Origin: an uncultured Gammaproteobacteria bacterium
Lineage (GTDB): Bacteria > Patescibacteriota > Patescibacteriia > Magasanikbacterales > UBA922
Length of the DNA stretch: 63,205 nucleotides
Direction: 5' to 3'
NCBI GenBank assembly: GCA_964612105.1
Contig: CAZTEU010000004.1
Span: 60,897 to 124,101 of the forward strand
The notes under the pieces were generated by a model that saw only the letters and a program-made list of their open reading frames with translations, was not told the DNA's origin and did not search any database. Below are positions 4,656-61,571 of the stretch, piece by piece. Position 1 is the stretch's first letter. Every line of letters begins with the position of its first letter. A program made the translations under genes and the position numbers.

Positions 4656-4753
4656 ATATATAGATTATATCAGATTTCTTAACACACAACTTGTATATTG
4701 ACAAAACAGGCACTATAGTGTAGTGTTTTATTAACAAAACAGAGAGGTGAATC

Positions 4754-4999
4754 ATGGCACAATGTCCTTCATGCGGACACCTGTACGGACTGTTCAAGGT
4801 GAGGCGCAGACCGTCTGTCCAGTCCTGTCCCAGTTGTGGGTGGGATCCGACCTCGTCGTCGAGTAGCGACGACGACTACGATCCCAATATGGATCCCTAT
4901 CACGACCCAAGAAGTGGGAGGGGGTCTCGCTACCAGAGCGGTGGCATTCCTGGCGGAGGAAGCACCGGAAGCGGAAGTCGTGGTGGGCGTGGACGTTAG
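4754..4999 (+). CDS. Small GC-rich orphan with two CxxC motifs and a Gly/Arg/Ser-rich tail
   Basis: CPSCG twice; upstream TTGACA-17-TATAGT and GAGGTG SD. Confidence 0.65.
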   Translation: MAQCPSCGHLYGLFKVRRRPSVQSCPSCGWDPTSSSSSDDDYDPNMDPYHDPRSGRGSRYQSGGIPGGGSTGSGSRGGRGR

Positions 5000-5014
5000 T
5001 CTGCACACATTCTA

Positions 5015-5084
5015 AGGGGGAGACGATCGTGAAAACAGTAGGGATCGTCAAACTCAAAACAACACCTGTAAAGGTGTTTTTTTG
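5015..5084 (+). repeat. 70-bp direct repeat, copy 1 (hairpin plus terminator)
   Basis: Identical to 5430-5499; GACGATC/GATCGTC stem, then AACACCT-GTAA-AGGTGTT-T run. Confidence 0.9.
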
Positions 5085-5244
5085 TTTTATGACATTAGAA
5101 AAATAATTAATTCAGTTGATTTTAAACGAGCATCTATTGACAGCCGGCCGTTTTTGCGCTACGCTAACATCACTTAATCCGAGCCTAGAAATATAAACCT
5201 ACGGCTGCGGAAATTAGCGCTATATGCGCAGAGAGGTGAGAGTG

Positions 5245-5409
5245 ATGACATTTTGGAGAAACTGGGAGTGGAGGAGCTGTTCTTCCTGCTTTGGAACGGG
5301 CTGGGTAAGTGTCATGCGACATGACGACGATGTAGATGGTGATGAAGTGAGGTGCACTGTGTGCAACGGCAGAGGAAAGGTCAAGGTCGCCAAGGATGAC
5401 GACGACTGA
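5245..5409 (+). CDS. DnaJ-type CxxCxGxG zinc-finger microprotein
   Basis: CSSCFGTG and CTVCNGRG; GAGGTG SD; upstream TTGACA. Confidence 0.7.
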   Translation: MTFWRNWEWRSCSSCFGTGWVSVMRHDDDVDGDEVRCTVCNGRGKVKVAKDDDD

Positions 5410-5429
5410 GACGTCTTCATAAAATTTAT

Positions 5430-5499
5430 AGGGGGAGACGATCGTGAAAACAGTAGGGATCGTCAAACTCAAAACAACACCTGTAAAGGTGTTTTTTTG
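5430..5499 (+). repeat. 70-bp direct repeat, copy 2
   Basis: Identical to 5015-5084. Confidence 0.9.
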
Positions 5500-5581
5500 A
5501 TCTAGGATTGAGGGGTGCTAGAAGCGAGTATTTATTGACTTCCCTAGCTATTCTCTATAAAATATGTTTTAGGAGGTAAAA

Positions 5582-5797
5582 ATGTCTGGTACCAATAACA
5601 AGCACAGCTCGTCCTGTGAGAAAAGACAAATGCCAGCTCGCTCACTTGCAGAAGCATGTGAAATCGCACTCGATCCCAACAGGTGGAGCGACGAGACGAT
5701 AGAGCAAATGGAGCGTTTCCAACGCTACTGTGGCGTGTGTGAGCGTGTCGGGTGTGATTGCCTGTTCATCTTCAGGGACAGGGGAATGCGCAGATGA
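5582..5797 (+). CDS. Small Cys-containing orphan
   Basis: TTGACT-17-TATAAA promoter, AGGAGG SD, CGVC and CDC motifs; terminator AACACCT/AGGTGTT at 5884-5907. Confidence 0.55.
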   Translation: MSGTNNKHSSSCEKRQMPARSLAEACEIALDPNRWSDETIEQMERFQRYCGVCERVGCDCLFIFRDRGMRR

Positions 5798-5917
5798 GGT
5801 GGCACTCATGGTCTTTGCAGACAAAGGGAGCCCGAACACTCACGATGCACGAGCATACGGAGAAAGTTCGGGGCATCATAAAGAACACCTATAAAGGTGT
5901 TTTTTTGATATAAAGAT

Positions 5918-5945
5918 AAACGGGCTTATTAGAGGGCGTTAGAGC
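5918..5945. repeat. Array core copy A (degenerate, 10 mismatches)
   Basis: AAACGGGCTTATTAGAGGGCGTTAGAGC followed by TTTTTGTAC as after copy B. Confidence 0.6.
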
Positions 5946-5953
5946 TTTTTGTA

Positions 5954-6679
5954 CTACTTATTCTGCTCCCAAAGCATTGTAAACATAGCATCAAAAATAT
6001 CCACCATTGCTGGAACAGCAATAACCACAGCGAGGGAAGAAAGTTCTGGGCTCACTATCAACACCTTGTCTTTAAAAATATCCATCGTACTTTTGAAACC
6101 ATATTTCTTTGGTAAAAATTTCACCTCGCGTAACAGCTCCTTACTTGTAGGACTATCTTTTCTGGATTCCTCTGTAAGAAGAAGTTTTGTCTTTATTTTT
6201 GCCTTTGCTCTGTCTTTTCTGTATTGCACAAAGAATTCTTTATCCAATCCTTGCCAATGCTTTGCTGTTCCAATAATCTTGTACTCTTTTCCTTTATGCT
6301 CTTCTAACACTTCGTCATAAAACTTTTTTAATTCGTCCACTGTTTCAATAAATCTAAGCCCAACCATGTTGAGCTGTTTTTTTTCTAGTGATTCTAGAGA
6401 GGGGATAAGGTCTTCAAAAGAGGACACCTTCTTTTTGTAATGGTCTGCCACTCGTTGGGGCTTGTCTGCGTAAAATAACTGCTTATTCTTTCTGTAATAC
6501 ATCGTCACAAACCCTTTTTTTGACAGAGCCTTAAGAGTTGCGTACACGGTTGTGCGTTTTATACCCACATCTTTGGCTACCGCACTAGCAATAGCTCCGC
6601 CAGAGCGTAGAAGCGAGACATATATGTCTGCTTCTTGGTCAGAGAGCCCAAGATCCTTTAATGCTTGTTTTGAGGCCAT
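5954..6679 (-). CDS. TrmB-like HTH transcriptional regulator
   Basis: LKDLGLSDQEADIYVSLL...IKRTTVYATLKAL winged-HTH N-terminus. Confidence 0.85.
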   Translation of the reverse strand: MASKQALKDLGLSDQEADIYVSLLRSGGAIASAVAKDVGIKRTTVYATLKALSKKGFVTMYYRKNKQLFYADKPQRVADHYKKKVSSFEDLIPSLESLEKKQLNMVGLRFIETVDELKKFYDEVLEEHKGKEYKIIGTAKHWQGLDKEFFVQYRKDRAKAKIKTKLLLTEESRKDSPTSKELLREVKFLPKKYGFKSTMDIFKDKVLIVSPELSSLAVVIAVPAMVDIFDAMFTMLWEQNK

Positions 6680-6723
6680 ATTACTGTTGTCTAAATATTA
6701 AGACACTTTTTTACTATGCTTAT

Positions 6724-6800
6724 ATTATAGCTTATTTTAGCCATATTGTCAAGCCCTTATGTCTAAAACGGTTGACAAAAGCGGGAAAATAGGGTATAAT
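6724..6800. promoter_or_regulatory. Divergent sigma70 promoters
   Basis: Minus: TTGACA (6752-6747)-17-TATAAT (6729-6724); plus: TTGACA (6772-6777)-17-TATAAT (6795-6800). Confidence 0.8.
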
Positions 6801-6847
6801 GCTCTGTTAACAATCAAGAAGGTTGGAACAAAACATCGCTCTTTAAA

Positions 6848-6938
6848 ACATTCCCGCCCCCACCCATCTGCTTGGAGAGAGGCATATGAGTGGAGGCAGG
6901 GAATTATCCTTGGACCAAACGACCCTGGGAGGGGAAAA
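6848..6938 (+). ncRNA. Conserved structured 5' leader, copy 1
   Basis: Aligns without gaps to 9776-9686 with compensatory base-pair changes. Confidence 0.65.
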
Positions 6939-7490
6939 ATGTGTAAGAAAACCATTTCTATCGTTCAGGCAGTGCGTATGTCCGAGCTCGGTGAGGATGA
7001 GGTGATCATCACGCCAGTCATCGTGGGTCGCAAGCGCGTTTCCGCACTCGTGGAGTTCCGCGCAGCACCTGGGCTCGCAACACTGGTGGATTACCGTGAC
7101 GTCTATCACGGTACCAGAGGTATCCTGCTTGTTGCTGGGCGCGCATTTTACAATGTGTGTGGTTGCTGCCCAGCGCGACGCCCGGATGGGTTGCCTCGGG
7201 AGTACAAGGTCTATGAGGTCTTCCTTACGGGACGTCGAGAGAGGGAGGACATTCCCCACCTCGTTAAGCACTACAACGATGCCTATGCGGAGGGGCTTCG
7301 GAAGGCGATCGCACGTTCCGGTGTGAAAACGGTGGCCGTACGCGAGGCGGGCGAGTTCCAGAGCAAGTTCCGAGATCTCGGTGCGGAGATCGTGGAGCAC
7401 AACAAGTTCCGAAAGCATCTCAAGTGGGATCTCCCCGCGCGTGAGGTGGAGTCGATCTTGGATCGGCTCAAATACATCAAGGAGGACTAG
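6939..7490 (+). CDS. GC-rich orphan protein (183 aa)
   Basis: ATG after GGGAGGGG SD; the longer track ORF runs through the promoter and leader. Confidence 0.7.
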   Translation: MCKKTISIVQAVRMSELGEDEVIITPVIVGRKRVSALVEFRAAPGLATLVDYRDVYHGTRGILLVAGRAFYNVCGCCPARRPDGLPREYKVYEVFLTGRREREDIPHLVKHYNDAYAEGLRKAIARSGVKTVAVREAGEFQSKFRDLGAEIVEHNKFRKHLKWDLPAREVESILDRLKYIKED

Positions 7491-7636
7491 TCGCCGACAA
7501 GCGACAACAACAAAGGTTAAATGGCCGAGTACCTATACAAAATCTCGGCCCAATTCAAAAGAACATCTCACAAAGGTGTTCTTTTGTTTTAGGTTATTTG
7601 TTGTATGGTATAATTACTTCGTTATCAAATATTAAT

Positions 7637-9091: not shown

Positions 9092-9214
9092 TTTTTGTAC
9101 ACAAAAAATCACCTGATAAGGGTGATTCTTTGTTATCTTTTTTGTACAAACAAGAATGTGCCGAGTTTACGTGACGGCTGCACGGGGTGGCGAGTCCAAT
9201 CTTGCCAATTCCTC

Positions 9215-9685
9215 CTACAGAATTTTGAAGTTGAGCCTCACGGAGACGGACACCAGGTCCACCCCGCCGGCATAGCTGATGTATGCCACGGGAGTGGCAA
9301 CTTTCAGCGTCTTGCTGACTGGGAAGATCGGTACGATCGCCCCGCCAACGGCATAGGTGTTCTTTTTGGGGACCCAGCGCGTCAGTCCAGTGGCGCCAAC
9401 CAAGAAGTGCTTGTTCACTTTCTTGATAGCCCCGACGATCATCTGCGGCTGTACCACCAACTTGGTAGTCGGAGTGAACACTCCAACCTCCAGGAAAGCT
9501 GCCCAACCATCAGCGATGGGTTGTACAGCGTGGATTCCCAGGGCTGCGCCGACAGGCAGATCTTTGTCGACGTTGATGGCCTTTGGGAAAGCCATGTAGG
9601 TTCCCAGACCCAACGAGGCTCCCTGCGCCTCGAAGGCGATGAGGGAACAGAACAACGAAATGAGAAAGAACGAAGTGCGAGTCAT
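9215..9685 (-). CDS. GC-rich secreted orphan with beta-strand-rich (barrel-like) pattern
   Basis: Signal peptide (…AFEAQGA), alternating hydrophobic strands, C-terminal SVSVRLNFKIL. Confidence 0.6.
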   Translation of the reverse strand: MTRTSFFLISLFCSLIAFEAQGASLGLGTYMAFPKAINVDKDLPVGAALGIHAVQPIADGWAAFLEVGVFTPTTKLVVQPQMIVGAIKKVNKHFLVGATGLTRWVPKKNTYAVGGAIVPIFPVSKTLKVATPVAYISYAGGVDLVSVSVRLNFKIL

Positions 9686-9776
9686 GATTTCCCTCCCAGG
9701 GAAGTGTGGGGTCGGGCTTATTCCCGATCTCCACTCATATGCCTCTCTCTAGGCAGATGGGTGAAAATGGGAATGT
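9686..9776 (-). ncRNA. Conserved structured 5' leader, copy 2
   Basis: Homologous to 6848-6938; promoter TTGACA (9824-9819)-17-TATAAT (9801-9796). Confidence 0.65.
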
Positions 9777-9932
9777 CTTAACTTAATAACACAGCATTAT
9801 ATCATAAAAAACTATACTTGTCAAGTCTTTTTGGCTAAGTAAAGCCAAATATAGTCATTATGTATCTGATAATCAAACTACTTATTTGACAAAATGCCTA
9901 TAAATTAGCATAATACTACTGTCATAAATTAT

Positions 9933-11897: not shown

Positions 11898-12029
11898 TGG
11901 AATAATAAAAAAAGAACAAATTGTTCTTGTATGAAAGTCCATGTCCGCCCGCCCGTGCTTGTTGCTCGATGAGCGGACACGGACGGACGCGCTCCTTCTG
12001 GGCTCGTGCAGCGAAGGGGTGTAACACGG

Positions 12030-12335
12030 TCAGACTCTTGCGTGCTTTTGTACACGGGCTGCTTCGCTGGTAAGTCGTGGCTCTACGATCGAGGTGTCCT
12101 TTCCGTAACCTCGTGACCCATTGTTGACTATACAGCCGTTTTCCCAGGTGAGGTGGTGTGTGTGGCCTCTGTGAATGCAGCGGGCCACTTTGATCGGCTC
12201 CCAGTCTGCAAATCCTCTGGCGTATCCGACAAACAACCACTCAATTCCATCATTCCCCACAAGACTGTCTCCGCAGGTCAAACTCTCAAACTCATCTTGT
12301 GTGATTGCAGTCTTTTCAATGAGGTGTTGTAACAT
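12030..12335 (-). CDS. GC-rich orphan
   Basis: GGAGG SD upstream of ATG; 101-aa ORF. Confidence 0.6.
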   Translation of the reverse strand: MLQHLIEKTAITQDEFESLTCGDSLVGNDGIEWLFVGYARGFADWEPIKVARCIHRGHTHHLTWENGCIVNNGSRGYGKDTSIVEPRLTSEAARVQKHARV

Positions 12336-12602
12336 ATTGTCCTCCGTGCAAGGGGTATAAGCAAGTCAGGGTAGTATAATAATAGATGTGGGAGAAATAG
12401 GCAAGTTGGGATACAATGAGATGTATTGTGGTTGTAATAGAAAATAGCTTAAGTTAGTCAAACAAACGCTTAGACCTATTGACAAAAGGAGTTTTTTGTG
12501 TTAAGGTCTTTCCAGTTTTTCCTCTCGAGGATTTATCGTCAAGTGTGAAAGTCATACAAAGCGCGGTGATGGTCTCTGAGGGGTAATTCCTAGGAGGTCA
12601 TT

Positions 12603-12851
12603 ATGACAGCGCAGCCAGTAGAGGTCACTATCCTGTGGAATGGAGGATGGGATAGATACCTCGTCGACACAAGTATCACCGTCAGTGTTCCTGAAGCAGA
12701 GCTTCAGGGGAACGCCCGAATGTGGCCAACATTCGAGTGTGAGGAAGCCGAAGGTTCGTTCCTCAAAGCAAGCTTTAGTTCGGTCTTGAAAAAGTCCGTT
12801 ACCGAAGGTTGTGGGGTTCGCATTCTGAGGCGCCTCGGCGGCGGCGACTAA
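12603..12851 (+). CDS. GC-rich orphan
   Basis: AGGAGG SD; TTGACA at about 12479; about 100-nt leader. Confidence 0.6.
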   Translation: MTAQPVEVTILWNGGWDRYLVDTSITVSVPEAELQGNARMWPTFECEEAEGSFLKASFSSVLKKSVTEGCGVRILRRLGGGD

Positions 12852-12900
12852 TCGATGGCAAAAAAGCGGTACCTTTCGGGGTGCCGCTATTCTTTTCTAA

Positions 12901-12981: not shown

Positions 12982-13245
12982 CTACTTATAGACTTGCTCG
13001 TGTCCACCAACATCAATAAATATTACGTGAGTGTAGTTATTGTATTCTTCGAATATTAAGCGTATATTTCCCGAGACTGACACGGCTCTTTTTCCCAGCA
13101 TCAGACCTCGAAGTTTGTGGTTTTTTAGTGAAGTGTCGCTTGGGTCTTTTATAAGCCTTTCTATTGTTTTTGTAATTTTACTCTGAAGTTTGCATGGAAG
13201 CTTCTTAAATTGTTTTGTAAATCTTTTACTATAACTAATCTTCAT
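12982..13245 (-). CDS. RelE/YafQ-family type II toxin
   Basis: MKISYSKRFTKQFKKL...LKNHKLRG...VGGHEQVY. Confidence 0.9.
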   Translation of the reverse strand: MKISYSKRFTKQFKKLPCKLQSKITKTIERLIKDPSDTSLKNHKLRGLMLGKRAVSVSGNIRLIFEEYNNYTHVIFIDVGGHEQVYK

Positions 13246-13517: not shown

Positions 13518-13592
13518 AAATATATATTTGTATAAATACATAATAACATGTCTGTAGTGATGTTGTCAATACAGCTAATATTATTTCATCTT

Positions 13593-14672: not shown

Positions 14673-15206
14673 CTACTTAGGGCCTAGTAAATCCTTGTGA
14701 AATTCATACAAAGAGCTTCCAACCATTTCAATTGCTTGTGTTTCTTTGTTATCGCTATTTATCAATACAGATTGAGCTTTTTCTGTGTCAACAAGCGCCA
14801 TTTCTACTGTTCCGTCTTTGTGCCCCTCCATGTAATACCCTCTTTTCTTTATCTTTTTAAGAATATTCGCATAATCTGAGTTTGTCATTGAGCGAACTCT
14901 CCAGACCTCATGTTTTTTGTGCTTGTTAAATTCCTCAAATATTTTATCGACTGTAAAAAGACGTTCGTTCACCTTCTGCCTGAAATTATCTGGATCCTCT
15001 ATTTTGTAATAATATCTGTTTCCCATTTTTGAGTGGTTAATAAAACCCTTTTCTTCCAAAGAGCGCAGATATTCCTGGCAACTTGTTCGTAGTATTCCTG
15101 TTTTGTCCGCGAGCTCAGATACTTTTGCACTTCCAAGTCTAAGAAGAGTTCTATATACAAGAATTTCTTTATCAGAAAAATTAAATTGTCTTAATAATTG
15201 TTCCAT
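14673..15206 (-). CDS. TrmB-like HTH regulator
   Basis: FNFSDKEILVYRTLLRLG...ILRTSCQEYLRSLEEKGF. Confidence 0.8.
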   Translation of the reverse strand: MEQLLRQFNFSDKEILVYRTLLRLGSAKVSELADKTGILRTSCQEYLRSLEEKGFINHSKMGNRYYYKIEDPDNFRQKVNERLFTVDKIFEEFNKHKKHEVWRVRSMTNSDYANILKKIKKRGYYMEGHKDGTVEMALVDTEKAQSVLINSDNKETQAIEMVGSSLYEFHKDLLGPK

Positions 15207-15832
15207 ATATTTTGGTACATTTCGCTAACCTCTTTATTCTTAAAACCAAATACTTGTAATTGGTCCCCAAACTCTACAAAAGCAACCTTGTTACTCCAAA
15301 TAAATAGCATTACATCTCCTTTTCGTTCTTTCACCTTTGGTGCAATTCCTTTTTGGTTGGATCTTTTGTGGTAGAAGGGCCAATAATCTCCAAGGTAATT
15401 AGCCAAGTGACTACTTTGTCCAATTATATGCATTTTCTTTTTTTCTCGAAGTGATTTCTCCAGCAATATCTTTACTCCATGAACATCTTTGGAATATGAG
15501 CGCAGTCTTAAAGGTTGCTCTGTCTTCTTATATTCCTTATGCATCGCAGGCACAAACTTCCTTACAGCACTCTCTTGCCTTTTCACATACTGCTTTAATG
15601 CGCCAATAGGTAGGGCGCGGAAGTCCAATACATCTCTGTATTTAGTAGAAGTGACAAGCTTCTTTTTTTTGAGTGACTCTAATACTAAATATGTGGTTGG
15701 TCTTTTAGTCCCCGCTCTTTTTGATATACCTAAAACACCGCCCTTCTTCATTGAGAGTAGGGCGCTGTATACAAGAGCTTCCTTGTGAGAAAGTCCAAGG
15801 TTTTCTAGGGCTTTTATACGCTTAATATCCAT
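15191..15832 (-). CDS. TrmB-like HTH regulator
   Basis: LENLGLSHKEALVYSALL...TKRPTTYLVLESL. Confidence 0.8.
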   Translation of the reverse strand: MDIKRIKALENLGLSHKEALVYSALLSMKKGGVLGISKRAGTKRPTTYLVLESLKKKKLVTSTKYRDVLDFRALPIGALKQYVKRQESAVRKFVPAMHKEYKKTEQPLRLRSYSKDVHGVKILLEKSLREKKKMHIIGQSSHLANYLGDYWPFYHKRSNQKGIAPKVKERKGDVMLFIWSNKVAFVEFGDQLQVFGFKNKEVSEMYQNIWNNY

Positions 15833-15932
15833 ATTGCTGTCAATAATAACATCAATTATCAATATATAAATAATATTATATAGTGCACTGTCCGTCAAGG
15901 GGGCGGACATTCATTCTTTTTTGGAGGTCGTT

Positions 15933-16574
15933 ATGCTTGTTCATTCTACTAACTGCAGAAGGCGGACGATTCCGCGCCTGAAAAGACCGCGGAGCTGTTT
16001 CCGCGTTCCCACGAATACCGTGCTGGTCGTGGTCGATCCGCAGAAAGCCTTCGGTTCGGTCGTGTCAGTTCCGCATGTCGAAGAGGCGGTCTCCAACATG
16101 CGTAAGGTGATCTCTTACTGGCGCAAGCGCGGAGGGAAGGTGATCCTCACGAGGCACATCTACAAGGATGAGAGTTGCGTCGGATCGGTCTCAGATTTCA
16201 TCCCGCCGATTTTCGGCGTGTTGAGGGAAGGTTCGCCGATGGGCGAGTTCCATGATGGCATCTGGTTCGATGGCGTCATCATCATCGACAAAACCGAGTT
16301 CAACGCCTTCATCGGGACGACGCTCGAGAAGCAGCTCCGCAAGCTCGGCGCCTCCCATTTCCTCGTCTGCGGTCTCACGACCCCGATCTGCGTGGAGGGT
16401 ACTGCGCGTGGCGGTGTTGAGCGTGGTTTCAAGGTGACGGTCGTCTCGGACGCTTGTGCATCTCAGCCCATGGGTGAGGAATCCGCTCGGGAGGCACACG
16501 ACTCTGCCATCGTTCGACTCGGCTACATCTTCGCTAAGGTGGTCAGCACCGAGGATCTCCTGTCGCTGCAGTAG
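15933..16574 (+). CDS. Isochorismatase-like cysteine hydrolase (GC-rich)
   Basis: D-K-C triad motifs VVVDPQ, IDK, TPICV; GGAGG SD; terminator AACATCT/AGGTGTT at about 16620. Confidence 0.85.
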   Translation: MLVHSTNCRRRTIPRLKRPRSCFRVPTNTVLVVVDPQKAFGSVVSVPHVEEAVSNMRKVISYWRKRGGKVILTRHIYKDESCVGSVSDFIPPIFGVLREGSPMGEFHDGIWFDGVIIIDKTEFNAFIGTTLEKQLRKLGASHFLVCGLTTPICVEGTARGGVERGFKVTVVSDACASQPMGEESAREAHDSAIVRLGYIFAKVVSTEDLLSLQ

Positions 16575-16639
16575 GCAAAAAGGTTTCCGCGTTTTCCTGA
16601 AAAAACGCGAGCACAAAAGAACATCTGTAAAGGTGTTTT

Positions 16640-16770
16640 TTTGTTTAGTTCCAACCTCCCCACACCATTCCAGTCGCCAGTACCCAAGGTTAGAACCAAA
16701 AACACTGCTAGATTTAGCAGTGTTTTAACTCTTTCGGGAAAATGAGCTGGCTACTAGAGGACGTTAGAAA
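16640..16770. repeat. Array junction H, long type (core 16743-16770)
   Basis: Same layout as F; TGAGCTGGCTACTAGAGGACGTTAGAAA. Confidence 0.9.
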
Positions 16771-16947
16771 TGGAATTGTACTACAGTGACTTAGTTTGTC
16801 TGCTAAGTCCCCACAACATGCTGAGTGTTGTTCTCATGAATTCTACAAAATCACCACCCTCAACTAAAATCAATTTTTTGGTTTGGAGAATATTCAAAAA
16901 TACTGCATAAATGCAGTATTTTTGAAGCGAATGTGAAAATCATGATT

Positions 16948-34232: not shown

Positions 34233-34367
34233 ATAGTGTAGATTAACCTATTTTGCAGTATTTTGCAATCGGTATTGACTTCTGTGAATATTAGATGGTA
34301 GTTTACTATATGGTTGAGCTTTTATTACAAGGAACCTCCTTGGGGAGGGACAAACAAGGAGTAATCA

Positions 34368-34892
34368 ATGGCGACTTTCCAAAGAATCATTGAAGTAGTG
34401 GTAGAAGCAGAAGATGAAGCGTTCGTCGCCAGACTCTTCAAAAGGCTGGACACAACGCTGTCCGAGTTTTCCGACAGTTTGGATGGCAAGCCAGTTAGCT
34501 TTGCCATCGTGAGGAATGACAAGGGTGCCAGCCTGGTTGGTCCAGACAAATGGCCTCTTAAGGCCGGTGATGTTGTCCAAACTGGTCGTGGTGGCCACAC
34601 TGCTGTGGTCGGTGAGCCCATGGAGCCTCAAGACTTCAAAAGTGGGACATCCTCAAGTGATCCGCACACATGGGTTGTGTGCTATGTCGCTGATCCAACT
34701 GCATCCTGGAGTCTCCCATCCGAGGATGCACTGTTCGATTGGCTGGAGGAGAATCAAGGTGGCGGTTCGATTAGTGTTTCAGCGAACAGGGGGGAGAACT
34801 GGGTGGATGTCACTGACCTCAAAAACGCCATGGAAGTAGAGAACTGCAGTGCGCTTGATGCATTTGGTCTGATCACCGGAGCAGGTGTCTAG
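34368..34892 (+). CDS. GC-rich orphan
   Basis: TTGACT promoter, AAGGAG SD, 3' hairpin and terminator. Confidence 0.65.
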   Translation: MATFQRIIEVVVEAEDEAFVARLFKRLDTTLSEFSDSLDGKPVSFAIVRNDKGASLVGPDKWPLKAGDVVQTGRGGHTAVVGEPMEPQDFKSGTSSSDPHTWVVCYVADPTASWSLPSEDALFDWLEENQGGGSISVSANRGENWVDVTDLKNAMEVENCSALDAFGLITGAGV

Positions 34893-34996
34893 ACACACAC
34901 AGCACTCCTCTCGGTCTCCTGTCATTGTGACGAGGCCGAGGGGGGAATCTAAAAAACCGACACAAGTCGATTTTTTATTTGTTTTATTTTCAAATA

Positions 34997-35298
34997 TTAG
35001 CACCTATAATGCTCTGGCTTATACGGCCCATCTTTTGCAACCCCAATATATTCCGCCTGCTCATCTGTCATTTCTGTAATACTTACTCCAAGTTTGTCTA
35101 GGTGCAATCTTGCAACCTCCTCGTCTAATTGTTTTGGAAGAGTGTATACCCCTACTTCATAATTATTTTTCACCAAATCAATCTGTGCAAGCACCTGATT
35201 ACTAAAACTATTGCTCATTACAAAACTTGGATGACCTGTAGCGCAACCAAGATTCATTAGGCGACCTTCTTCTACATAAATATTGAATGACCATCGTC
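34997..35298 (-). pseudogene. ahcY: Duplicated 3' fragment of ahcY
   Basis: Near-identical to 35888-36190 with a 1-nt indel near its 5' end; ends HYRC instead of HYRY. Confidence 0.9.
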
Positions 35299-35463
35299 TA
35301 TATTGAGCCCCGATTTTGCCTAATTTTACGTCTTTCATGCTTGTAGATTGGTCTATTTTAGGAGATTTGGCAATTAAAAAAGAGCCTTGTAAGGGGCTGT
35401 TAGAAAGGGGAACTCCTTGGAACCGACTCGCCCGTGGTGGACGAGCCGGTTCGTTGCTGATGT

Positions 35464-35796
35464 TTATGTATCAATTCCGACGGCGAGAGGGACCGGTCCA
35501 CCTGTTCTGGTGTGGTCGCCCCTTTTCCACAGTGTGAACCGCGACACTGGGTTGTGACCCTCATCTGGGTCGCAAGCTCCGCCAATTGAATCGCGTATCT
35601 CCACCGTCAGAGGATCATCCTCAGGTCCTGCATCTGCCAGAAGGACTCTGCACACCGCAACCCCTTTTCGTTTTGTGGGGGCCGTGATGACCTCCACCAT
35701 GGCTCCAGCAGGCAGGCTTCCGCCCTCTTTGGTCCAAACAGGAGTCAACACGTCGAGCTGATCTCCACTCCTCAATTCTTTAGCGAATAAGAACAT
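35464..35796 (-). CDS. GC-rich orphan
   Basis: AGGAGGTG SD, upstream TTGACA, 3' hairpin. Confidence 0.65.
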
Positions 35797-35887
35797 CGTG
35801 CACCTCCTTATGTTGAGCCTATCTCTTTTTTTAATATGTGTCAATAAAAAAATCAGCAGAAGCCGATTTTAGGTTTAAAATTTTGAG

Positions 35888-37300
35888 TTAGTACCTATAG
35901 TGTTCTGGCTTATACGGCCCATCTTTTGCAACCCCAATATATTCCGCCTGCTCATCTGTCATTTCTGTAATACTTACTCCAAGTTTGTCTAGGTGCAATC
36001 TTGCAACCTCCTCGTCTAATTGTTTTGGAAGAGTGTATACCCCTACTTCATAATTATTTTTCACCAAATCAATCTGTGCAAGCACCTGATTACTAAAACT
36101 ATTGCTCATTACAAAACTTGGATGACCTGTAGCGCAACCAAGATTCATTAGGCGACCTTCTGCTAACATAAATATTGAATGACCATCATCAAAAGTATAT
36201 TTGTCTACCTGTGGTTTTATATTTTCTTTTTTTACACTAGGGTCATTATTGAGAGGCTCTACTTCTATTTCGTTATCAAAATGACCAACATTACATACAA
36301 TTGCCTGGTCTTTCATCTTCTTCATGTGCTCAACACGAATTACATCCTTATTACCTGTAGTAGTCACATATATATCTCCACGACCAAGTGTATTTTCTAC
36401 TGTTGTAACTTCGTATCCTTCCATAGACGCCTGTAGTGCGCAGATTGGGTCTATCTCTGTGACTATCACCCTACAACCTTGTCCTCTGAGAGACTGGGCA
36501 GAACCTTTACCAACATCACCATAACCACATACGACGGCAACTTTACCTCCGAGCATTACGTCCATTGCGCGGTTTAGTCCATCTACTAGGGAGTGACGAA
36601 TTCCAAATACGTTATCGAACTTACTTTTTGTAACAGAATCATTAACGTTTATTGCAGGGAATAGCAACTCTCCTTTTTTCTGCATTTGGTAAAGCCTCAT
36701 TACACCAGTTGTTGTTTCCTCAGACACTCCAATTATATCTTTTGCAACACTAGTCCAGCGATTTGGGTTCTTGGAGTATAGCTCTTTCATTAGTTTTATG
36801 AGCTCTTGGAATTCTAAAGGTTCGTTTGAATAATCTTTTTCTAATTTCTCTGGATTTTTTTCTATATCCACCCCCAAGTGAACCATCAATGTAGCATCGC
36901 TTCCATCATCTACAATTAAATCTGGACCTTTTCCATCACCAAAATCTAATGCGCGTTCTGTGCACCACCAATATTCAGCGAGAGTTTCTCCTTTCCATGC
37001 AAAAACAGGCACACCACTCTTTGCAATTGCTGCGGCCGCATGATCTTGTGTAGAAAATATATTACAACTTGCCCAGCGCACATTCGCTCCGAGAGCAACC
37101 AACGTTTCTATAAGCACAGCTGTTTGGATTGTCATGTGTAGCGAGCCCATTACACTCTTTCCGGCAAGAGGCTTTTCTGATGCGTACTTTTCACGGATAG
37201 ACATAAGTCCAGGCATCTCTTTTTCTGCAATCTTAATCTCCTTGCGTCCAAAATCTGCAAGTGATATATCTTTTATCTTATAATTTTGTGTTTCATCCAT
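35888..37300 (-). CDS. ahcY: Adenosylhomocysteinase
   Basis: [44 protein letters not shown]. Confidence 0.97.
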
Positions 37301-38277: not shown

Positions 38278-38415
38278 AATATTTTTTTAAAACTGTCGCT
38301 ATTATAGCTATATTTAATAAGGTTTTCAAGAAGGTTACAAGGCTTTGTTATAAGTAGTTGACATATATAGTACATAATGTTATTATGATTTGTCACCAAC
38401 AAAAGGAGGTGTGAC

Positions 38416-38715
38416 ATGAACGAAGCACGTAGACAAACTCCGGCCTACAAGATCCTGCTGGAACTCCTGGAGCTCTCGGTTGGTCCCATGCCGGACACCA
38501 GCTCAGACCTGGATGTGAACTTTGGGCGCATCGGGCTGAACATGATGTGTGCCAGAATTGCTCACGGTATCGCCAACATGGAGATTCCAGAGGGGTACAC
38601 GGACAAGGTTCTGAACAGGTTGGAGGATATCCACCAACTTGCCCTTGAGGAGGGCAACACGAGTTGTGCCACCTCGGTACAGCTCGCCAGAACCACAATC
38701 TACACCCGAGAGTAG
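38416..38715 (+). CDS. GC-rich orphan
   Basis: TTGACA promoter, AGGAGGTG SD, terminator. Confidence 0.65.
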   Translation: MNEARRQTPAYKILLELLELSVGPMPDTSSDLDVNFGRIGLNMMCARIAHGIANMEIPEGYTDKVLNRLEDIHQLALEEGNTSCATSVQLARTTIYTRE

Positions 38716-38835
38716 CCAACAACTAGTGCTGTTCAAAAACCCCGCATGGTTTACCAATGTGGGGTTTCTTCTTTTTTGGTCGTTCTCCTTGACAAAAATA
38801 GAATTTTCCGCTATACTTCGCCAATTGTAAACATT

Positions 38836-41614: not shown

Positions 41615-41715
41615 ATTCTTGTTTATTAATTTAGTCAGTCTAATTTAACAGATTTGGAGGTTTTTCTCAATGCCTCTTGACAAAACAACCATTTTTTGTA
41701 TATACTGGGGTCAAC

Positions 41716-41928
41716 ATGGAGGGTATCGTGTGCAAACAACCTGATCAACCTGAGACAGGCGACAGCCTTCTCACTTTGCCACAACGGCGCTTGGACGAGG
41801 TGTTCCACTTCTGGTCTTGCGATTGCGGACCGAGACAGTCTCACCTCTCACCTCTCTTCCTGGAGGCGTACAAGCCCCCGCCGGACGAGGGTGTTCTCAA
41901 GAAAGAGGACAAGCCGGAGGCGGCATGA
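41716..41928 (+). CDS. GC-rich small orphan (Cys-containing)
   Basis: TTGACA-17-TATACT promoter; start uncertain. Confidence 0.45.
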   Translation: MEGIVCKQPDQPETGDSLLTLPQRRLDEVFHFWSCDCGPRQSHLSPLFLEAYKPPPDEGVLKKEDKPEAA

Positions 41929-42044
41929 CCGACGAACAAACAGGCTGGAGCGAGGATTACAAGGAGGATCCAGCCACCCAGCCAAATAAAAAACGGCACT
42001 AGTGCCATTTTTTTATTATACAATTTTCTTTATTAACTATGTGC

Positions 42045-44453: not shown

Positions 44454-44555
44454 AATGAGCTCTACTTTGCCATACATGCAGTAAACAATCAAGGTTGACA
44501 AAACAGCATGTGTGATGTATAAGTGTAATTAACCAGAACCTATGGAGGGAGAACC

Positions 44556-44906
44556 ATGAGAAACCCCGAGAGAAAGGAGGTCCTTTGTCGCTTGCGAAGC
44601 CACGCGTTGCAACACCGAAGAGTGCCTGGGAAGATGTTGGCGAAGAAGCATCTTCGCACAGCTATGATTCTCAGTCATATGCTTCGGAGTCGTAAACCTG
44701 TGGTTGAAAACACCACATGTCGACTTGCAAGAGCTGTTCGTGAGAACGATACCTATGTCGCAAAGCTGATGTGCTTGGCACTCAAGCAAATGAAGTTGTC
44801 ATACTCCGAGACAGCGAAACTCGTCAGCATTGCTGCGACTGCCAGTACAAGTGAAATGCAGTGTGCGATTAGTTCCACTGTTGCTCACATACGCTGCGCC
44901 GAGTGA
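44556..44906 (+). CDS. Basic GC-rich orphan
   Basis: TTGACA promoter, GGAGG SD, 3' hairpin. Confidence 0.6.
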   Translation: MRNPERKEVLCRLRSHALQHRRVPGKMLAKKHLRTAMILSHMLRSRKPVVENTTCRLARAVRENDTYVAKLMCLALKQMKLSYSETAKLVSIAATASTSEMQCAISSTVAHIRCAE

Positions 44907-45037
44907 ATGAAGGAGAACAACCTGCTCCGAGGTGTACAATTGAGTCCACCTCGGTTGCACACTTCATAAAACTGCGAAAGCAGGTTTTTTTATTTTGTAT
45001 ATAATGTTAATATAAATAGGTATTAATAATTATATAT

Positions 45038-46388: not shown

Positions 46389-46469
46389 TAATAAACACAA
46401 AAGAGCCTATTAGGGCTCTTTTTGATTGACAAAAACCTATTTTTATGTAAAACTGTTAATGTTTATAAC

Positions 46470-46703
46470 ATGGAGGTGATTGTGCACTGGGCTGAGAAAG
46501 CAAACCGCATCGTGCGTTTTGTCATCCTCATTATGGTCTGCATCCTGCTTGTTCAGTTGAGCGAGTGTGGTCTGTACTATTGTAGGTTGCAGATTGTGTC
46601 TTTGGTTAAATCCAAGCGCATCGTCTTGGTTGAGGTCGAGAAGGTAATCGACCAAAAAACCAAGATTGTCTGCGATGAGAGTGGGGAAGGTGTCTGTTTG
46701 TAA
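46470..46703 (+). CDS. Small orphan with one TM segment
   Basis: TTGACA-17-TAAAACT, GGAGGTG; hydrophobic N-terminal half. Confidence 0.45.
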   Translation: MEVIVHWAEKANRIVRFVILIMVCILLVQLSECGLYYCRLQIVSLVKSKRIVLVEVEKVIDQKTKIVCDESGEGVCL

Positions 46704-46788
46704 CCCTGTGGCACACAAAGGAGTAAAATACCCGCCACAATGTGTGTTTCCAATAATTGGAACTATACATTGGTGCGGGTATTTTGTT

Positions 46789-47415
46789 TTATTTATTATT
46801 TCTTATCTTGTTCGAGATAGTGTCATTACCACTCTTGTTTCTTGCTGTACTAAAGACTCTTCCATACATTATCATACGCAATGTAAAAAACCTCCACTCT
46901 TTTTTTGGGATAAGTTTCATTAAATCTTGCTCTATCCTTTTTGCATCTTTATGTTTTGTTAATCCAAACTGTCTAGACAGTCTAATAACATGAGTATCTA
47001 CCGCTATTCCTTCTGTAATATTATAAGCAGAAGCAAGAAAGACGTTTGCTGTTTTTCTTCCAACACCAGGAAGTGTGATTAGTTCCGCAATTGTTTTTGG
47101 GATTCTTCCCCCAAACTCTTTCTTAATTTTTTTTGCGGAATGTACAATGTTTTTAGCCTTGTTTTTATAAAGTCCAATGGAATTTATATCTCTTTCAAAA
47201 GTTTTTATGTTTTCCCTTGCAAAATCATCTAGTTTTTTATATTTTTTAAACAAATTTTTTGTAACCTTGTTTACCTGTTTGTCTGTTGTCTGTGCAGATA
47301 GTATTATTGCTACTAAAAACTGAAACCTGCTTCTATAGTTTAGGGCAGGTCTTACTTTTGGGAATAGTTTTTTTAACTCTCTAAGTATAATTTTTACTCG
47401 CTCTTCTTTTTTCAT
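46789..47415 (-). CDS. nth: Endonuclease III-like HhH-GPD glycosylase lacking the Fe-S cluster
   Basis: LSAQTTD, LPGVGRKTANV, AVDTH; no cysteines. Confidence 0.88.
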   Translation of the reverse strand: MKKEERVKIILRELKKLFPKVRPALNYRSRFQFLVAIILSAQTTDKQVNKVTKNLFKKYKKLDDFARENIKTFERDINSIGLYKNKAKNIVHSAKKIKKEFGGRIPKTIAELITLPGVGRKTANVFLASAYNITEGIAVDTHVIRLSRQFGLTKHKDAKRIEQDLMKLIPKKEWRFFTLRMIMYGRVFSTARNKSGNDTISNKIRNNK

Positions 47416-59307: not shown

Positions 59308-59556
59308 TTATTTACCACCCCTATCTTTAACAATAATTACTAATATCCAAATGATGGAGATAGCAAATATTACTGCTGTTATAAGCATGGTTATATAGTC
59401 CCATACAATATAACAAGGTAAAGAAGTGACTATTTCTTGCTTACAAGGAAAAAAGTAATTGTATGATTTTCCAATAATTAGCTCTGTATTTGAAAAATGG
59501 TAGATCAAAGCAGATATTATTGCGGAGACAAGAGGGATTTTTATTTTTTTTATCAT
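59308..59556 (-). CDS. Small two-TM hypothetical protein (cassette-like)
   Basis: Start at 59556 preferred; the track ORF extends into the attC-like site. Confidence 0.6.
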   Translation of the reverse strand: MIKKIKIPLVSAIISALIYHFSNTELIIGKSYNYFFPCKQEIVTSLPCYIVWDYITMLITAVIFAISIIWILVIIVKDRGGK

Positions 59557-59692
59557 AATTACATTATAGTGTGTAAATAAAACTTTTAATTTTACATAAC
59601 GTTTGCGTATATGCGAACGTTGTGAATACTTGTATGCCAACATTGGCGAAGCCAACGTACAAGTATGAGTAATTTGGGCGGAGCCCATGGAC

Positions 59693-59920
59693 TTATTTTT
59701 TCCCTTTTCTAAAGTCGCCTTCTTTTAATCCACTGTGAAGCAAAATCGACTGAAATGTACCATGTGGTATTTCCTTCTTCCTAACTTTAATAGTGACTTT
59801 TAATGTTTTCCCTTTTGTAGCTTTTTCATATCTGGCATGCGATCCTTTTTGCCTAACAAAAAAGAAGCCCTTTTCTGATAGGACTTTTAGTACAATTTTT
59901 AATGAAATTGGTCTAGGCAT
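59693..59920 (-). CDS. HicA-family toxin
   Basis: KGFFFVRQKGSH and EIPHGTFQSIL. Confidence 0.9.
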   Translation of the reverse strand: MPRPISLKIVLKVLSEKGFFFVRQKGSHARYEKATKGKTLKVTIKVRKKEIPHGTFQSILLHSGLKEGDFRKGKK

Positions 59921-60131
59921 GTTGGAATTTAAGTCGTTCCAACACAGGACGCTCTATTTTTTGTATTTTAGAAAGAGGAACATCTTCAAGATGAAGTTCC
60001 AGCGCCTCCTGTAATGATTCTAGGGCTTCTTTTTTGGAATCACCAAAACTGGAAACTCCTGTATTAAGATTCCAAGATACATAGTGTTTACCCTCTTTCC
60101 ACACGACATTTTTTAAGTCGATTTTGCGCAT
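59913..60131 (-). CDS. HicB-family antitoxin (short)
   Basis: GVSSFGDSKKEALESLQEALELHLE. Confidence 0.88.
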   Translation of the reverse strand: MRKIDLKNVVWKEGKHYVSWNLNTGVSSFGDSKKEALESLQEALELHLEDVPLSKIQKIERPVLERLKFQHA

Positions 60132-60221
60132 ATTTCTAAGATAATTATACTTGTACTTTACTTAAAAAGAAAAAATAAGTCAAATTGGGCGTAGCCGGTT
60201 ATATGTTGTTATGTGATGCGC

Positions 60222-60461
60222 TTAAAAATTAAAATCTTTTTCCAAACATTCAACATATATTCTCTGTGCTTCTAATTCCATCTCTTCACTTACTTTTATG
60301 AAGTTTTTAGGTGGAAATTCTTCTTGTGTTGTGTTTGTGACTTTAGAATATGCTTCGCTCCAGCAGTTTTTAACTTTTGAGCCAGTTATTAAAAACCAAA
60401 TAAAGATAATGACACCGAGTAGCATAATTACAATGAATGTCCATTTTATTATTTTTTTCAT
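60222..60461 (-). CDS. Small membrane-anchored cassette protein
   Basis: N-terminal TM; lies between attC-like ends. Confidence 0.65.
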   Translation of the reverse strand: MKKIIKWTFIVIMLLGVIIFIWFLITGSKVKNCWSEAYSKVTNTTQEEFPPKNFIKVSEEMELEAQRIYVECLEKDFNF

Positions 60462-60491
60462 ATTTGTATTTTAATAATTATTAAGCATTTC

Positions 60492-60583
60492 ACACAACGT
60501 TTCGGCATAGCCGAAGTTTTGCAGTGGTAAAATGGGAGCGCTAGCGACCCACCACTGCAAAATTTGGGTGAGCGAGCGTTAAA
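60492..60583. repeat. attC-like site 2 (right arm missing)
   Basis: ACACAAC-GTTTC-GGCATA, internal stem TTTTGCAGTGG/CCACTGCAAAA, AATTTGGGTGAGC motif. Confidence 0.55.
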
Positions 60584-60642
60584 AATAAAATCACTTAAAA
60601 CAGTTGTTTAATTCCAAAGACTAGGAGACCGATAACTCCTAA

Positions 60643-60798
60643 AAACAAAATCTATTCTTTGCTTTCTTTTATAATATACTCGCTATACCACTTGCCGCTG
60701 CTGGTTTCTTAAATCCTATTGTTGCGGCTGTTGCTATGAGCTTAAGCAGTGTTTCTGTGGTCGGGAATAGCTTAAGAATTAGGAGGAAAGGATTTTAA
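60643..60798 (+). pseudogene. C-terminal remnant of a heavy-metal P1B-type ATPase
   Basis: [45 protein letters not shown]; in-frame stop immediately upstream. Confidence 0.85.
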
Positions 60799-60938
60799 TA
60801 TTTTCTCTATCAATCACTTGGGGCTATCTTTTGATTAAGAAGACTAACTTTTATAAGGTTGACAAGTTTGCCCTCCCGTGCTATATATAACCCCACAAAA
60901 CCCGCCCTTTAGTCTGGGCACGTTCTTTGGAGAATCAA

Positions 60939-61424
60939 ATGAAGAAAGTAGTACTTTCTGCACTTCCTTTTATGGTGTACGGTATTGTGGCGTATTTGAT
61001 CTCGGCTCATGTCTTCTATGCGGCGTCTGGTTCTTTCAACGCATCTACCGCATTTGCCGCCAGATTAGCTACCTTCACTGCCGTATACACCACCTTCCTC
61101 TCTGCAGCCACTATCAGTGATACTTTCAGAAGTACTATCGCCGATCTGGGCTTCGCCGTCGCTTTTGCTTTCGCTTGCGCTTACATCATCACTGTCTTCT
61201 CCACCAACCTCACCAACACTACCTTCTTTGCCTACTTTGTCACCCTTGTTTTCGCCGCTGCCTACGCTGCCGCCATGCCCACCATAATCGGCGGTATCAG
61301 TGGCTCCATCGATCTAGGCGAGTATCCAGTCAATGTGGTCTACTGGAAGGCTTTCCTTGTCTATCTTCTTGAGGCGATAGCCATCTTCACATTCGTCTAC
61401 TTCTACCATATCAGTGTTGAATGA
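60939..61424 (+). CDS. GC-rich multi-TM orphan
   Basis: TTGACA promoter, GGAG SD, 3' GC hairpin and CACCT/AGGTG terminator. Confidence 0.65.
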   Translation: MKKVVLSALPFMVYGIVAYLISAHVFYAASGSFNASTAFAARLATFTAVYTTFLSAATISDTFRSTIADLGFAVAFAFACAYIITVFSTNLTNTTFFAYFVTLVFAAAYAAAMPTIIGGISGSIDLGEYPVNVVYWKAFLVYLLEAIAIFTFVYFYHISVE

Positions 61425-61571
61425 TATAATGGAGGAGAACCTAACCCCTCGTGCCCACCGACTAAGCATCGGCTGGGCACGGGCGGGCAAACACAATTAA
61501 CCACCTAAATAGGTGTTTTTTTATTTGCCCCAAGAGATTGATAGTGTAAAAAAAGAAATGGGAAAACAATT

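Follow-up and report, generated by a model that had tools for sequence, protein, structure and literature searches.

A set of short GC-rich open reading frames (ORFs) is scattered over a 63,205-nt stretch of the genome of an uncultured bacterium of the Magasanikbacterales (hereafter the window, C4:60897-124101 of a 945-kb genome in 8 contigs). The islands formed by these ORFs probably represent a second compositional gene class that is native to a Magasanikbacteria-like lineage of the candidate phyla radiation (CPR), recombining and persistently GC-rich. For the families that have homologues, sequence comparison among relatives showed that GC-richness lasts within the class and is not what remains of one recent donor. 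Atypical GC content is the standard signal for calling recent horizontal transfer, and if the class stays GC-rich in the long term, composition-based estimates of horizontal gene transfer (HGT) would therefore be biased for CPR organisms.

GC-rich islands and their relatives

The first-pass annotation of the window had singled out 15 ORFs as visibly GC-richer than the AT-rich backbone, and a two-state GC model confirmed 14 of them as GC-rich islands overall. This segmentation delimited 14 non-tRNA islands of 273-653 bp, with 0.51-0.59 GC against 0.33-0.38 in the backbone, which matched ORFs 4754, 5582, 6939, 9215(-), 12030(-), 12603, 15933, 34368, 35464(-), 38416, 41716, 44556 and 60939; ORF 5245 reached 0.52 GC in a 200-nt profile. 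The marginal one was ORF 46470, borderline at 0.47 GC, devoid of a Shine-Dalgarno (SD) motif and without an island call. Codon usage, anticipated to be distinct, was computed and found to be radically different from that of the backbone. The GC contents at the three codon positions (GC1/2/3) were 0.56/0.44/0.60 in the GC-rich ORFs versus 0.48/0.34/0.28 in the backbone, and codon preference was inverted, since the share of ATA among Ile codons fell from 0.46 in the backbone to 0.04, that of ATC rose from 0.08 to 0.75, that of AAA among Lys codons fell from 0.65 to 0.20, and that of CTC plus CTG among Leu codons rose from 0.12 to 0.69.

Genome-wide, gene GC was bimodal, the second mode at 0.50-0.62 holding about 90 of 950 ORFs, and the closed 1.23-Mb sister genome of the same genus was equally bimodal. 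GC3 among the GC-rich ORFs spanned 0.42-0.84. The population is present in marine water-column samples (JGI 3300007504/7759/8735/8954 and the SUTE22/SCRA20 assemblies). Assemblies made independently from several marine metagenomes contained the islands at 99.75-100% identity, and because these assemblies and the closed sister genome show the same pattern, the mosaic composition is not an artefact of binning or assembly, which was ruled out also by the location of the islands inside contigs.

Elsewhere in the genome, the GC-rich class included giant secreted Cys-rich repeat proteins, an asparaginase, a GCS2 ligase, a phosphoribosyl pyrophosphate (PRPP) synthetase (Prs) and ribose-5-phosphate isomerase B (RpiB). 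The Cys-rich proteins, built of 'CDDGNxCTxDxC' repeats (Pfam Dicty_CTDC), were secreted or lipoprotein-like, paralogous and all GC-rich, and had GC-rich homologues in the sister genome. Although Prs and RpiB are enzymes of the core type, their genes fell into the GC-rich class both here and in the sister species. The locations in the genome under study (G000) are:

C3:129243-132398, C7:49316-51979, C5:7890-10130, C7:12142-14100, C1:202292-204175 and C6:46961-52981, Cys-rich repeat genes
C5:40533-41495, PRPP synthetase (Prs)
C1:172664-173203, ribose-5-phosphate isomerase B (RpiB)

Among backbone genes, 57-88% had a homologue in the sister genome, with a median identity of ~66% and 1 of 650 being GC-rich; among the GC-rich ORFs, 10-32% had one, with a median identity of ~35% and 15 of 18 being GC-rich. 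For ORF 9215, all five homologues checked, from five genera and three families, were sharp islands in AT-rich flanks (26-31% identity, GC 0.56-0.67, GC3 0.61-0.83). In four genera, putative operator palindromes (TTAGCTAA...TTAGCTAAA / GGCTAAAATAAGCTA) directly adjoin the -35 box, and three of the 9215 homologues keep the palindromic operator, the TTGACAA -35 box and the extended -10 box of the window copy. Similarly, Prs was found in 8 of 31 genomes and formed a GC-rich island in four of them, down to 46% identity. Amelioration, that is, drift toward the composition of the recipient, was seen neither for 9215 nor in 15 of the 18 G000-G001 pairs, the picture for Prs being mixed. In the islet test, atypical composition and patchy distribution were both present. 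The ratio of nonsynonymous to synonymous polymorphism (pN/pS) in the islands was uninformative, the strains being too similar.

The islands could alternatively be recent imports, in which coding segments of one donor of ~55-60% GC (host, phage or plasmid) would have come to lie behind resident promoters and remain un-ameliorated, in the manner of phage morons. They depart from the rest of the genome in composition, codon usage and SD use, their codon-position GC resembles that of a ~55% GC genome, one module is strain-variable, modules occur in cassette arrays with toxin-antitoxin genes, and 13 of the 15 ORFs had zero homologues in 200 genomes of the order. By this last result the ORFs are not conserved core genes, a finding that would have refuted the first-pass view; only 9215 and the isochorismatase gene 15933 had homologues in those genomes, at 24-34% identity. 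On the other side, ORFs 6939 and 34368 returned only self-matches, and no donor, among 5.8 billion proteins, and a full HMMER search of 1.84 billion representative proteins yielded four remote relatives of 6939. No meaningful match was obtained for 10 island ORFs in PHROGs or for the island ORFs in the PADLOC search for defence systems, and on this outcome a phage or defence origin was rejected. Moreover, the GC-rich state is kept at 26-46% identity across genera, an AT-rich promoter, operator and regulator are conserved along with the GC-rich body, and the GC3 range does not suggest one source. Recent import is considered an unlikely explanation of the islands, and the common donor suggested in the first-pass annotation found no support in view of these GC-rich homologues across genera, the missing phage and defence matches, the native promoters and the pairing with TrmB genes.

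The product of ORF 15933 was the only one with a curated family match (isochorismatase, Pfam 3e-34). Its closest homologue (56%) lies on L037 (JGI 3300010234, Ga0136261_1003908), a 5.4-kb contig of mosaic GC (0.32-0.61) full of orphan ORFs, which probably represents an array of this kind from a relative that has not been sampled. Outside L037, the nearest relative shares 52% identity and lies on a contig of a 64% GC genome; it was the sole donor candidate of matching composition and counts in favour of import. In genomes of 64% and 36% GC, relatives of this isochorismatase belong to an operon that is conserved. The APH kinase gene at 3594-4655 was rejected as its operon partner, having no similarity to the operon-type APH.

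Several observations weigh against a native and persistently GC-rich class. The isochorismatase pattern just described is consistent with ordinary HGT, and the distant isochorismatases of relatives are AT-rich. Prs is of native composition in three relatives and the relatives of 6939 are mildly GC-elevated (0.49), so GC-richness is not universal within a family. Thirteen of the 15 ORFs have no homologues in relatives and could therefore still be recent imports from unsampled donors, and an appearance of persistence would also arise if genera exchanged GC-rich alleles again and again. In addition, the excess RNA structure of coding sequence (CDS) bodies is modest and not significantly different from that of the antisense strands, and about six of the short ORFs would be putative coding sequences at most.

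Architecture and products of the modules

The autonomous, moron-like organization proposed in the first-pass annotation was recognized as promoter, SD, ORF, hairpin and terminator. Each module would be an independent transcription unit in which an AT-rich sigma-70 promoter, in some cases with a putative operator and a divergent AT-rich TrmB gene, is followed by a leader with a strong SD, a GC-rich body, a GC-rich 3′ hairpin and an intrinsic terminator from one of a few sequence families. The modules may thus be individually regulated accessory genes. The features of the window are:

4698..5092 (+), Module 1: promoter TTGACA-17-TATAGT (4698-4726), SD GAGAGGTG, CDS 4754-4999 (81 aa); 78-nt 3′ block 5015-5092 with terminator 5061-5083 inside
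5137..5507 (+), Module 2: TTGACA promoter-like site 5137, SD GAGAGGTG, CDS 5245-5409 (54 aa); second copy of the 78-nt block 5430-5507, terminator 5476-5498
5535..5910 (+), Module 3: promoter TTGACT-17-TAAAAT (5535-5563), SD AGGAGG, CDS 5582-5797 (71 aa, Cys-rich orphan); GC-rich 3′ untranslated region (UTR), family terminator 5884-5906
5954..6752 (-), TrmB-family gene 5954-6679: AT-rich, own 12/12 promoter 6752-6724, divergent from Module 4
6772..7590 (+), Module 4: 12/12 promoter 6772-6800, structured leader 6848-6938, SD GGGAGG, CDS 6939-7490 (183 aa); hairpin GGCCGAGTACC...CTCGGCC (~7523-7550), also at C5:96571 and L327; terminator 7556-7590
9105..9824 (-), Module 5: 12/12 extended -10 promoter 9824-9796 with TTAGCCAA-type palindrome upstream, second leader copy 9776-9686, CDS 9685-9215 (156 aa), terminator 9127-9107
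9933-11081 (+), TrmB-like gene, divergent from Module 5
11937..12404 (-), Module 6: ORF 12335-12030 (101 aa), SD GGAGG, weak promoter-like site 12404-12376; putative CDS, without codon-model support
12479..12900 (+), Module 7: TTGACA 12479, SD AGGAGG, CDS 12603-12851 (82 aa, orphan), terminator 12865-12898
14673..16646, Module 8 cassette: AT-rich TrmB genes 14673-15206 (-) and 15191-15910 (-), divergent from Module 8, which has SD GGAGG, CDS 15933-16574 (213 aa), GC3 0.74 and family terminator 16614-16646
34340..34985 (+), Module 9: SD AGGAG, CDS 34368-34892 (174 aa, acidic orphan), 3′ hairpin, terminator ~34950-34976
35299-35887 within 34997..36190 (-), Module 10: TTGACA 35844, SD AAGGAGGTG, ORF 35796-35464 (110 aa)
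38358..38780 (+), Module 11: TTGACA-17-TATTAT with TG (38358-38386), SD AGGAGG, CDS 38416-38715 (99 aa, orphan), terminator ~38736-38780
41677..42016 (+), Module 12: promoter 41677-41706, short leader, ORF 41716-41928 (70 aa, weak SD; putative CDS), GC-rich 3′ part, terminator ~41990-42016
44520..44995 (+), Module 13: TTGACA-N17-TATAAG promoter-like site, SD GGAGGG, ORF 44556-44906 (116 aa, basic; putative CDS), 3′ hairpin, terminator ~44970-44993
46455..46790 (+), marginal member: ORF 46470-46703 (77 aa), long hairpin downstream
60490..61680 (+), attC-bounded cassette: attC-like hairpins 60490-60592 and 61572-61680
60652-60798 (+), 3′ stub of a P-type ATPase gene inside the attC-bounded cassette
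60859-61526 (+), Module 15: promoter 60859-60888, SD GGAG, CDS 60939-61424 (161 aa), 3′ hairpin, terminator 61494-61526

Exact TTGACA-N16-18-TAnnnT promoters were found upstream of 4754, 6939, 9215, 12603, 35464, 38416 and 41716, two module promoters matching the consensus at 12/12 positions and several scoring 11-12/12. A promoter-like site was present at every module, and consensus promoters and intrinsic terminators flanked most ORFs. In this respect the first-pass description of modules with their own TTGAC promoters stood; its implication that these promoters set the modules apart did not. Genome-wide, GC-rich DNA followed 27% of the exact sites versus 9% expected, a threefold enrichment, and because the other 73% of sites serve ordinary DNA, the promoter is of the native type and no mark of a module. 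Judged by their sequences, the promoters and operators of the modules belong to the lineage itself, being of the sigma-70 type of its own genome. In the mean of 46 promoter-to-island cases, GC climbed right after the -10 box and reached a plateau of 0.55 by +80, the 100 nt upstream of the promoters being extra AT-rich. Since the GC step starts directly after the -10 box, the GC-rich segment corresponds to the transcript, with the promoter excluded.

The strong SD attributed to the modules and found mostly missing in their neighbours was corroborated at the genome scale. An SD-like motif was missing in 74% of 853 backbone ORFs, and GGAGG or better occurred in 1.4%; among the GC-rich ORFs, a set that includes some wrong-frame ORFs, an SD core of at least 4 nt was found in 44% and GGAGG or AGGAGG in 18%. 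The anti-SD of the 16S rRNA was intact. The need of the GC-rich genes for an SD would stem from mRNA folding, which per nt is about twice as stable as in the SD-less core mRNAs. Inside one cell, base composition and the way translation starts (SD-led versus SD-less) are coupled in this class.

The shared terminator family reported earlier also proved real. AACAYCT-n-AGRTGTT terminators were confirmed at 5061, 5476, 5884, 7562 and 16620, with a related one at 61500; seven sites were present in the genome, six of which abut GC-rich DNA, and eight in the sister genome, seven of which do so. Going by these sites, the family is conserved at the genus level. Between 4600 and 17000, terminator-like sites numbered 23, versus 10.1 +/- 3.5 in shuffles.

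Regulatory parts common to unrelated CDSs, another first-pass claim, were verified beyond the terminators. The copies of the 78-nt 3′ block at 5015 and 5430 are the same at 75 of 78 positions and identical over the first 70 nt; the block starts ~15-30 nt past the stop codons of 4754 and 5245, whose CDSs are unalignable, and runs to the terminator. Modules 6939 and 9215 have a 94-nt leader in common (at 6848/9776), and an 87-nt 3′ piece of module 6939, comprising hairpin and terminator, recurs beside an unrelated GC-rich ORF on contig C5. Such abrupt jumps from zero similarity to near-identity are a signature of recombination and not of divergence in place. The 3′ hairpin of module 6939 was found as well in another organism (L327), downstream of a homologue of 44% identity; it lies there in the 3′ UTR and is more conserved than the preceding CDS. 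This hairpin, GGCCGAGTACCTAT(C)ACAAAATCTCGGCC, was located at 7523-7550, at G000 C5:96571-96596 and at ~1590-1620 of L327. A GCCGAGT...CTCGGC hairpin as a universal 3′ tag was rejected, its counts in relatives being at the control level.

Five of the eight TrmB-family genes in the genome were AT-rich and placed head-to-head with GC-rich genes, three of them in the window and two on other contigs. PF01978 matches above cut-off were obtained at 5954-6679, 9933-11081, 14673-15206, 15191-15910, C5:97226 and C7:38400, and in the window the pairing was limited to modules 6939, 9215 and 15933. Because AT-rich TrmB genes are head-to-head with GC-rich genes, the GC boundary runs within an apparent regulator-target unit. 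A scan of 596 Gb of genomes with the operator-promoter pattern was discarded, the pattern being too loose and the matches mostly due to chance.

The module products are mostly lineage-restricted small proteins, namely zinc-ribbon mini-proteins, a secreted barrel, a membrane protein and the isochorismatase-family enzyme. The 4754 product has two CxxC pairs of a zinc ribbon and a low-complexity D/S/G/R tail, with Zn_ribbon matches below cut-off; the 5245 product has a DnaJ-type CXXCXGXG motif with a sub-threshold match; and that of 60939 is a multi-pass membrane protein. The structure predicted for 9215 from a four-sequence alignment consisted of a signal peptide and an 8-stranded beta-barrel (predicted local distance difference test, pLDDT, 85) that resembles OmpX, Ail and NspA (Foldseek probability 1.0, TM ~0.55). 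CPR bacteria are thought to lack an outer membrane, and a barrel of this type was unexpected in one of them; its family extends to at least five further genera. The AlphaFold prediction for 6939, from a single sequence, reached a pLDDT of 32. The class is enriched for secreted, surface and orphan proteins, which probably mediate the episymbiotic lifestyle.

For 6939, 9215, 15933 and 38416 the codon model backed the frame that had been proposed, as it did to a modest degree for 34368; it is not discriminating for the shortest ORFs, and it gave no positive support for 12030, 35464, 41716, 44556 and 46470. These shorter islands might be structured non-coding RNA genes whose ORFs are accidental, GC-rich sequence being poor in stops: every island has overlapping ORFs in several frames and on both strands, and the whole-module fold z-scores were -3.3 to -4.9, save for 12030 at -0.6. 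Such an interpretation is at odds with the SD correctly spaced from the proposed ATG in 12030, 35464 and 44556, with antisense strands that fold nearly as well, and with the lack of any Rfam match of the islands even at E <= 0.05, and is regarded as very unlikely. Rfam matches were limited to tRNAs (seven in the window), at gathering thresholds and at E <= 0.05, so that the islands are not known RNA genes, and structured RNA genes of a known kind were rejected on this outcome.

RNA structure was likewise rejected as the general cause of GC-richness through selection. Whole modules had a mean fold z of -3.3 versus 0.0 for backbone segments (p = 1e-5, dinucleotide shuffles), and their antisense strands reached -2.6; because antisense strands fold nearly as well, much of the signal is due to terminator hairpins and mosaic composition. 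For the CDS bodies alone, z was -1.6 (p = 0.004), with strong values only in 9215, 12603 (-4.1) and 38416 (-4.0 sense versus -0.6 antisense). Since the CDS-only signal is modest overall and strong in these three ORFs only, excess structure is at most a partial explanation.

Arrays, cassettes and recombination

The ORFs had been described as solitary, which was right only in part: eight modules lie in or adjoin a 12-kb repeat-delimited array (5.9-18.6 kb), and three of these eight are paired with TrmB genes. The array repeat is composed of a terminator hairpin and a 27-28-nt core, GAGCTGGCTACTAGAGGACGTTAGAAC, present in 7-9 copies of a single orientation and ending at tRNA-Gly(tcc). The copies of the core lie at 5.9-17.7 kb, and no copy was found elsewhere in the genome. 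The array cassettes mix AT-rich genes (TrmB, RelB/ParE) with GC-rich ones, so the unit of recombination is not the unit of GC content.

Other observations were made around this array. The core starts with GAGC, like the tRNA 3′ end on the + strand. A RelB/ParE toxin-antitoxin pair (12982-13541) makes up one cassette, and at 16637-18551 the cassette adjoining tRNA-Gly(tcc) is affected by a 905-bp tandem duplication, whose junction repeat also precedes tRNA-Gly(tcc). A sub-threshold Rfam match to GcvB at 3177-3375 (-), with 30.5 bits versus a gathering threshold of 42 and E = 0.007, adjoins a tRNA-Gly/Met pair and is probably due to chance.

Module 60939 is placed between two attC-like bulged hairpins with an R''/L''...L'/R' layout and a DNA fold z of -4.6 to -7.5, and further attC-like copies were found at 59594, 62626 and 63195. 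The strict attC pattern matched one site genome-wide, and no attC-like site adjoined the other 14 modules. Just upstream of the 60939 promoter, the stub at 60652-60798 encodes the C-terminal end of a P-type (heavy-metal) ATPase, of which no intact copy was present in the genome and a 60% match was found in the sister genome. Two small ORFs (59693-60131) lie within the attC-like site region of this second array. Four tyrosine recombinases are encoded in the genome, the best reaching 214 bits on the integron-integrase model TIGR02249 (cut-off 265), and none was found on the window contig, which ends at the window end, so that an integrase may still lie next to the array.

An empty site, one of the checks suggested at the outset, was provided by module 35464, a presence/absence polymorphism in that near-identical strains of a near-clonal population have gained or lost it. 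On one side the module is flanked by a truncated ahcY 3′ copy (34997-35298), on the other by the 3′ end of intact ahcY (35888-36190). The insert and the truncated 300-bp ahcY copy were carried by 8 contigs, one of them a 390-kb scaffold, and 2 contigs of a 99.95%-identical strain had a single ahcY without the ~890-bp unit. As read from these contigs, the structure fits a one-sided homology-anchored insertion, or a loss by recombination between the repeats, and not an att-site event. At the genus level no empty site could be read, synteny round typA being gone even at 85% TypA identity, and a metagenome scan returned nothing between 76% and 100% identity.

Site-specific cassettes, mobilized by an integron integrase acting on attC or by a tRNA-Gly integrase, might be taken to create the whole pattern, the composition being that of the cassette metagenome. 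The attC-like hairpins round 60939 with their further copies, the 27-28-nt core repeated in one orientation up to tRNA-Gly, and the four tyrosine recombinases speak for it. Nevertheless, such sites are missing in the vicinity of 34368, 35464, 38416, 41716, 44556 and 46470, and the core is limited to a single 12-kb array. A promoter of its own distinguishes each module from typical integron cassettes; the recombinases all score below the IntI cut-off and lie on contigs other than that of the window; and 35464 came with a 300-bp homology duplication and not with an att site. As an account of the whole set, this explanation appears distinctly improbable. A capture mechanism, raised in the first-pass annotation together with a common donor, is retained for part of the set in the form of the attC-type cassette and the tRNA-Gly array; it leaves the GC-richness unexplained, and a single donor was unsupported.

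In the context of a native, recombining and persistently GC-rich class, the set would turn over and be re-assorted by recombination, as is partly visible in the shared parts and the ahcY polymorphism, and the units would gather in the tRNA-Gly array, the attC-type cassette array and intergenic gaps. If this is true, some force must be at work, such as biased gene conversion, RNA selection or a closed cassette pool, and the preferred guess is a GC-rich cassette pool of the Patescibacteria in which exchange continues, together with RNA selection or GC-biased repair. A bolder version, put forward tentatively, is that each genome may hold two gene 'dialects': an AT-rich, SD-less and vertically inherited core, and an actively maintained GC-rich, SD-led accessory class with its own kit of parts, namely a consensus promoter (with a TrmB operator or without one), a structured leader, a 3′ hairpin and a dedicated terminator family. 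The non-coding parts would double as portable homology arms, so that bodies could be swapped or placed at new sites without a dedicated recombinase, and GC content would be held by GC-biased repair of these often recombining tracts or by selection for differently handled mRNAs (for example, more stable or resistant to ribonucleases or toxins), in Magasanikbacteria and probably in many Patescibacteria. For tests of regulation in genetically intractable organisms, handles are offered by the TrmB pairs and by the promoters, leaders and terminators that modules have in common.

Relation to known systems

The literature search retrieved no account of CPR genomes with a gene class that is bimodal and coupled to SD use, and several known systems share single traits with the modules. 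The TrmB regulators that have been characterised act on sugar metabolism, for the most part in archaea and Thermotogae. As in TrmB-regulated pairs, a helix-turn-helix regulator lies here head-to-head with its presumed target, with a palindromic putative operator at the promoter, whereas in this genome five paralogues each flank a different GC-rich and mostly orphan gene.

Typical integron cassettes are mostly promoterless and expressed from Pc. The modules resemble integron cassettes, and clusters of attC sites without an integrase (CALINs), in being small single-gene units stacked one way between structured sites alongside toxin-antitoxin cassettes, and module 60939 lies between two attC-like hairpins. 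They differ in that most of them have no attC, carry their own promoters and are accompanied by no IntI at cut-off, in that the tRNA-Gly array uses a 27-28-nt non-palindromic core beside a tRNA gene, and in that GC-richness tracks the transcript and not the cassette. CALINs are defined as attC clusters without integrase in the IntegronFinder paper (PMC4889954).

The phage moron, a concept derived from HK97/HK022, is an autonomous promoter-gene-terminator unit (PMC3594210), and the modules are likewise autonomous units whose GC differs from that of their neighbours (0.51-0.59 versus 0.33-0.38). In contrast to morons, they lie in no prophage, being flanked by ahcY, typA, pfkB, VKOR, rlmD and nth and having no PHROGs match; about 90 such genes occur per 0.95-Mb genome; and their odd composition persists across genera, which the logic of recent import does not predict.

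In Patescibacteria, HGT was reported to account for up to 13% of genome length and to take place mostly between Patescibacteria (Gios et al. 2025, PMC12455944), the same phylum as that studied here, and transfer within the phylum would be compatible with a lineage cassette pool. In that work, however, composition was treated as ameliorating, and GC-rich genes, SD use and integrons were not mentioned, whereas the class described here is stably marked by its GC-richness, its SDs and a terminator family dedicated to it.

Finally, a precedent on a small scale is found in the lgr genes of Protochlamydia amoebophila, six large paralogues that code for leucine-rich repeat (LRR) proteins and arose by recent duplication (PMC2216083). 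Like the modules, they are lineage-restricted, far GC-richer than the AT-rich chromosome and without homologues elsewhere. In the present genome, by contrast, the class is made up of dozens of unrelated and mostly small genes that have non-coding parts in common and regulators of their own.

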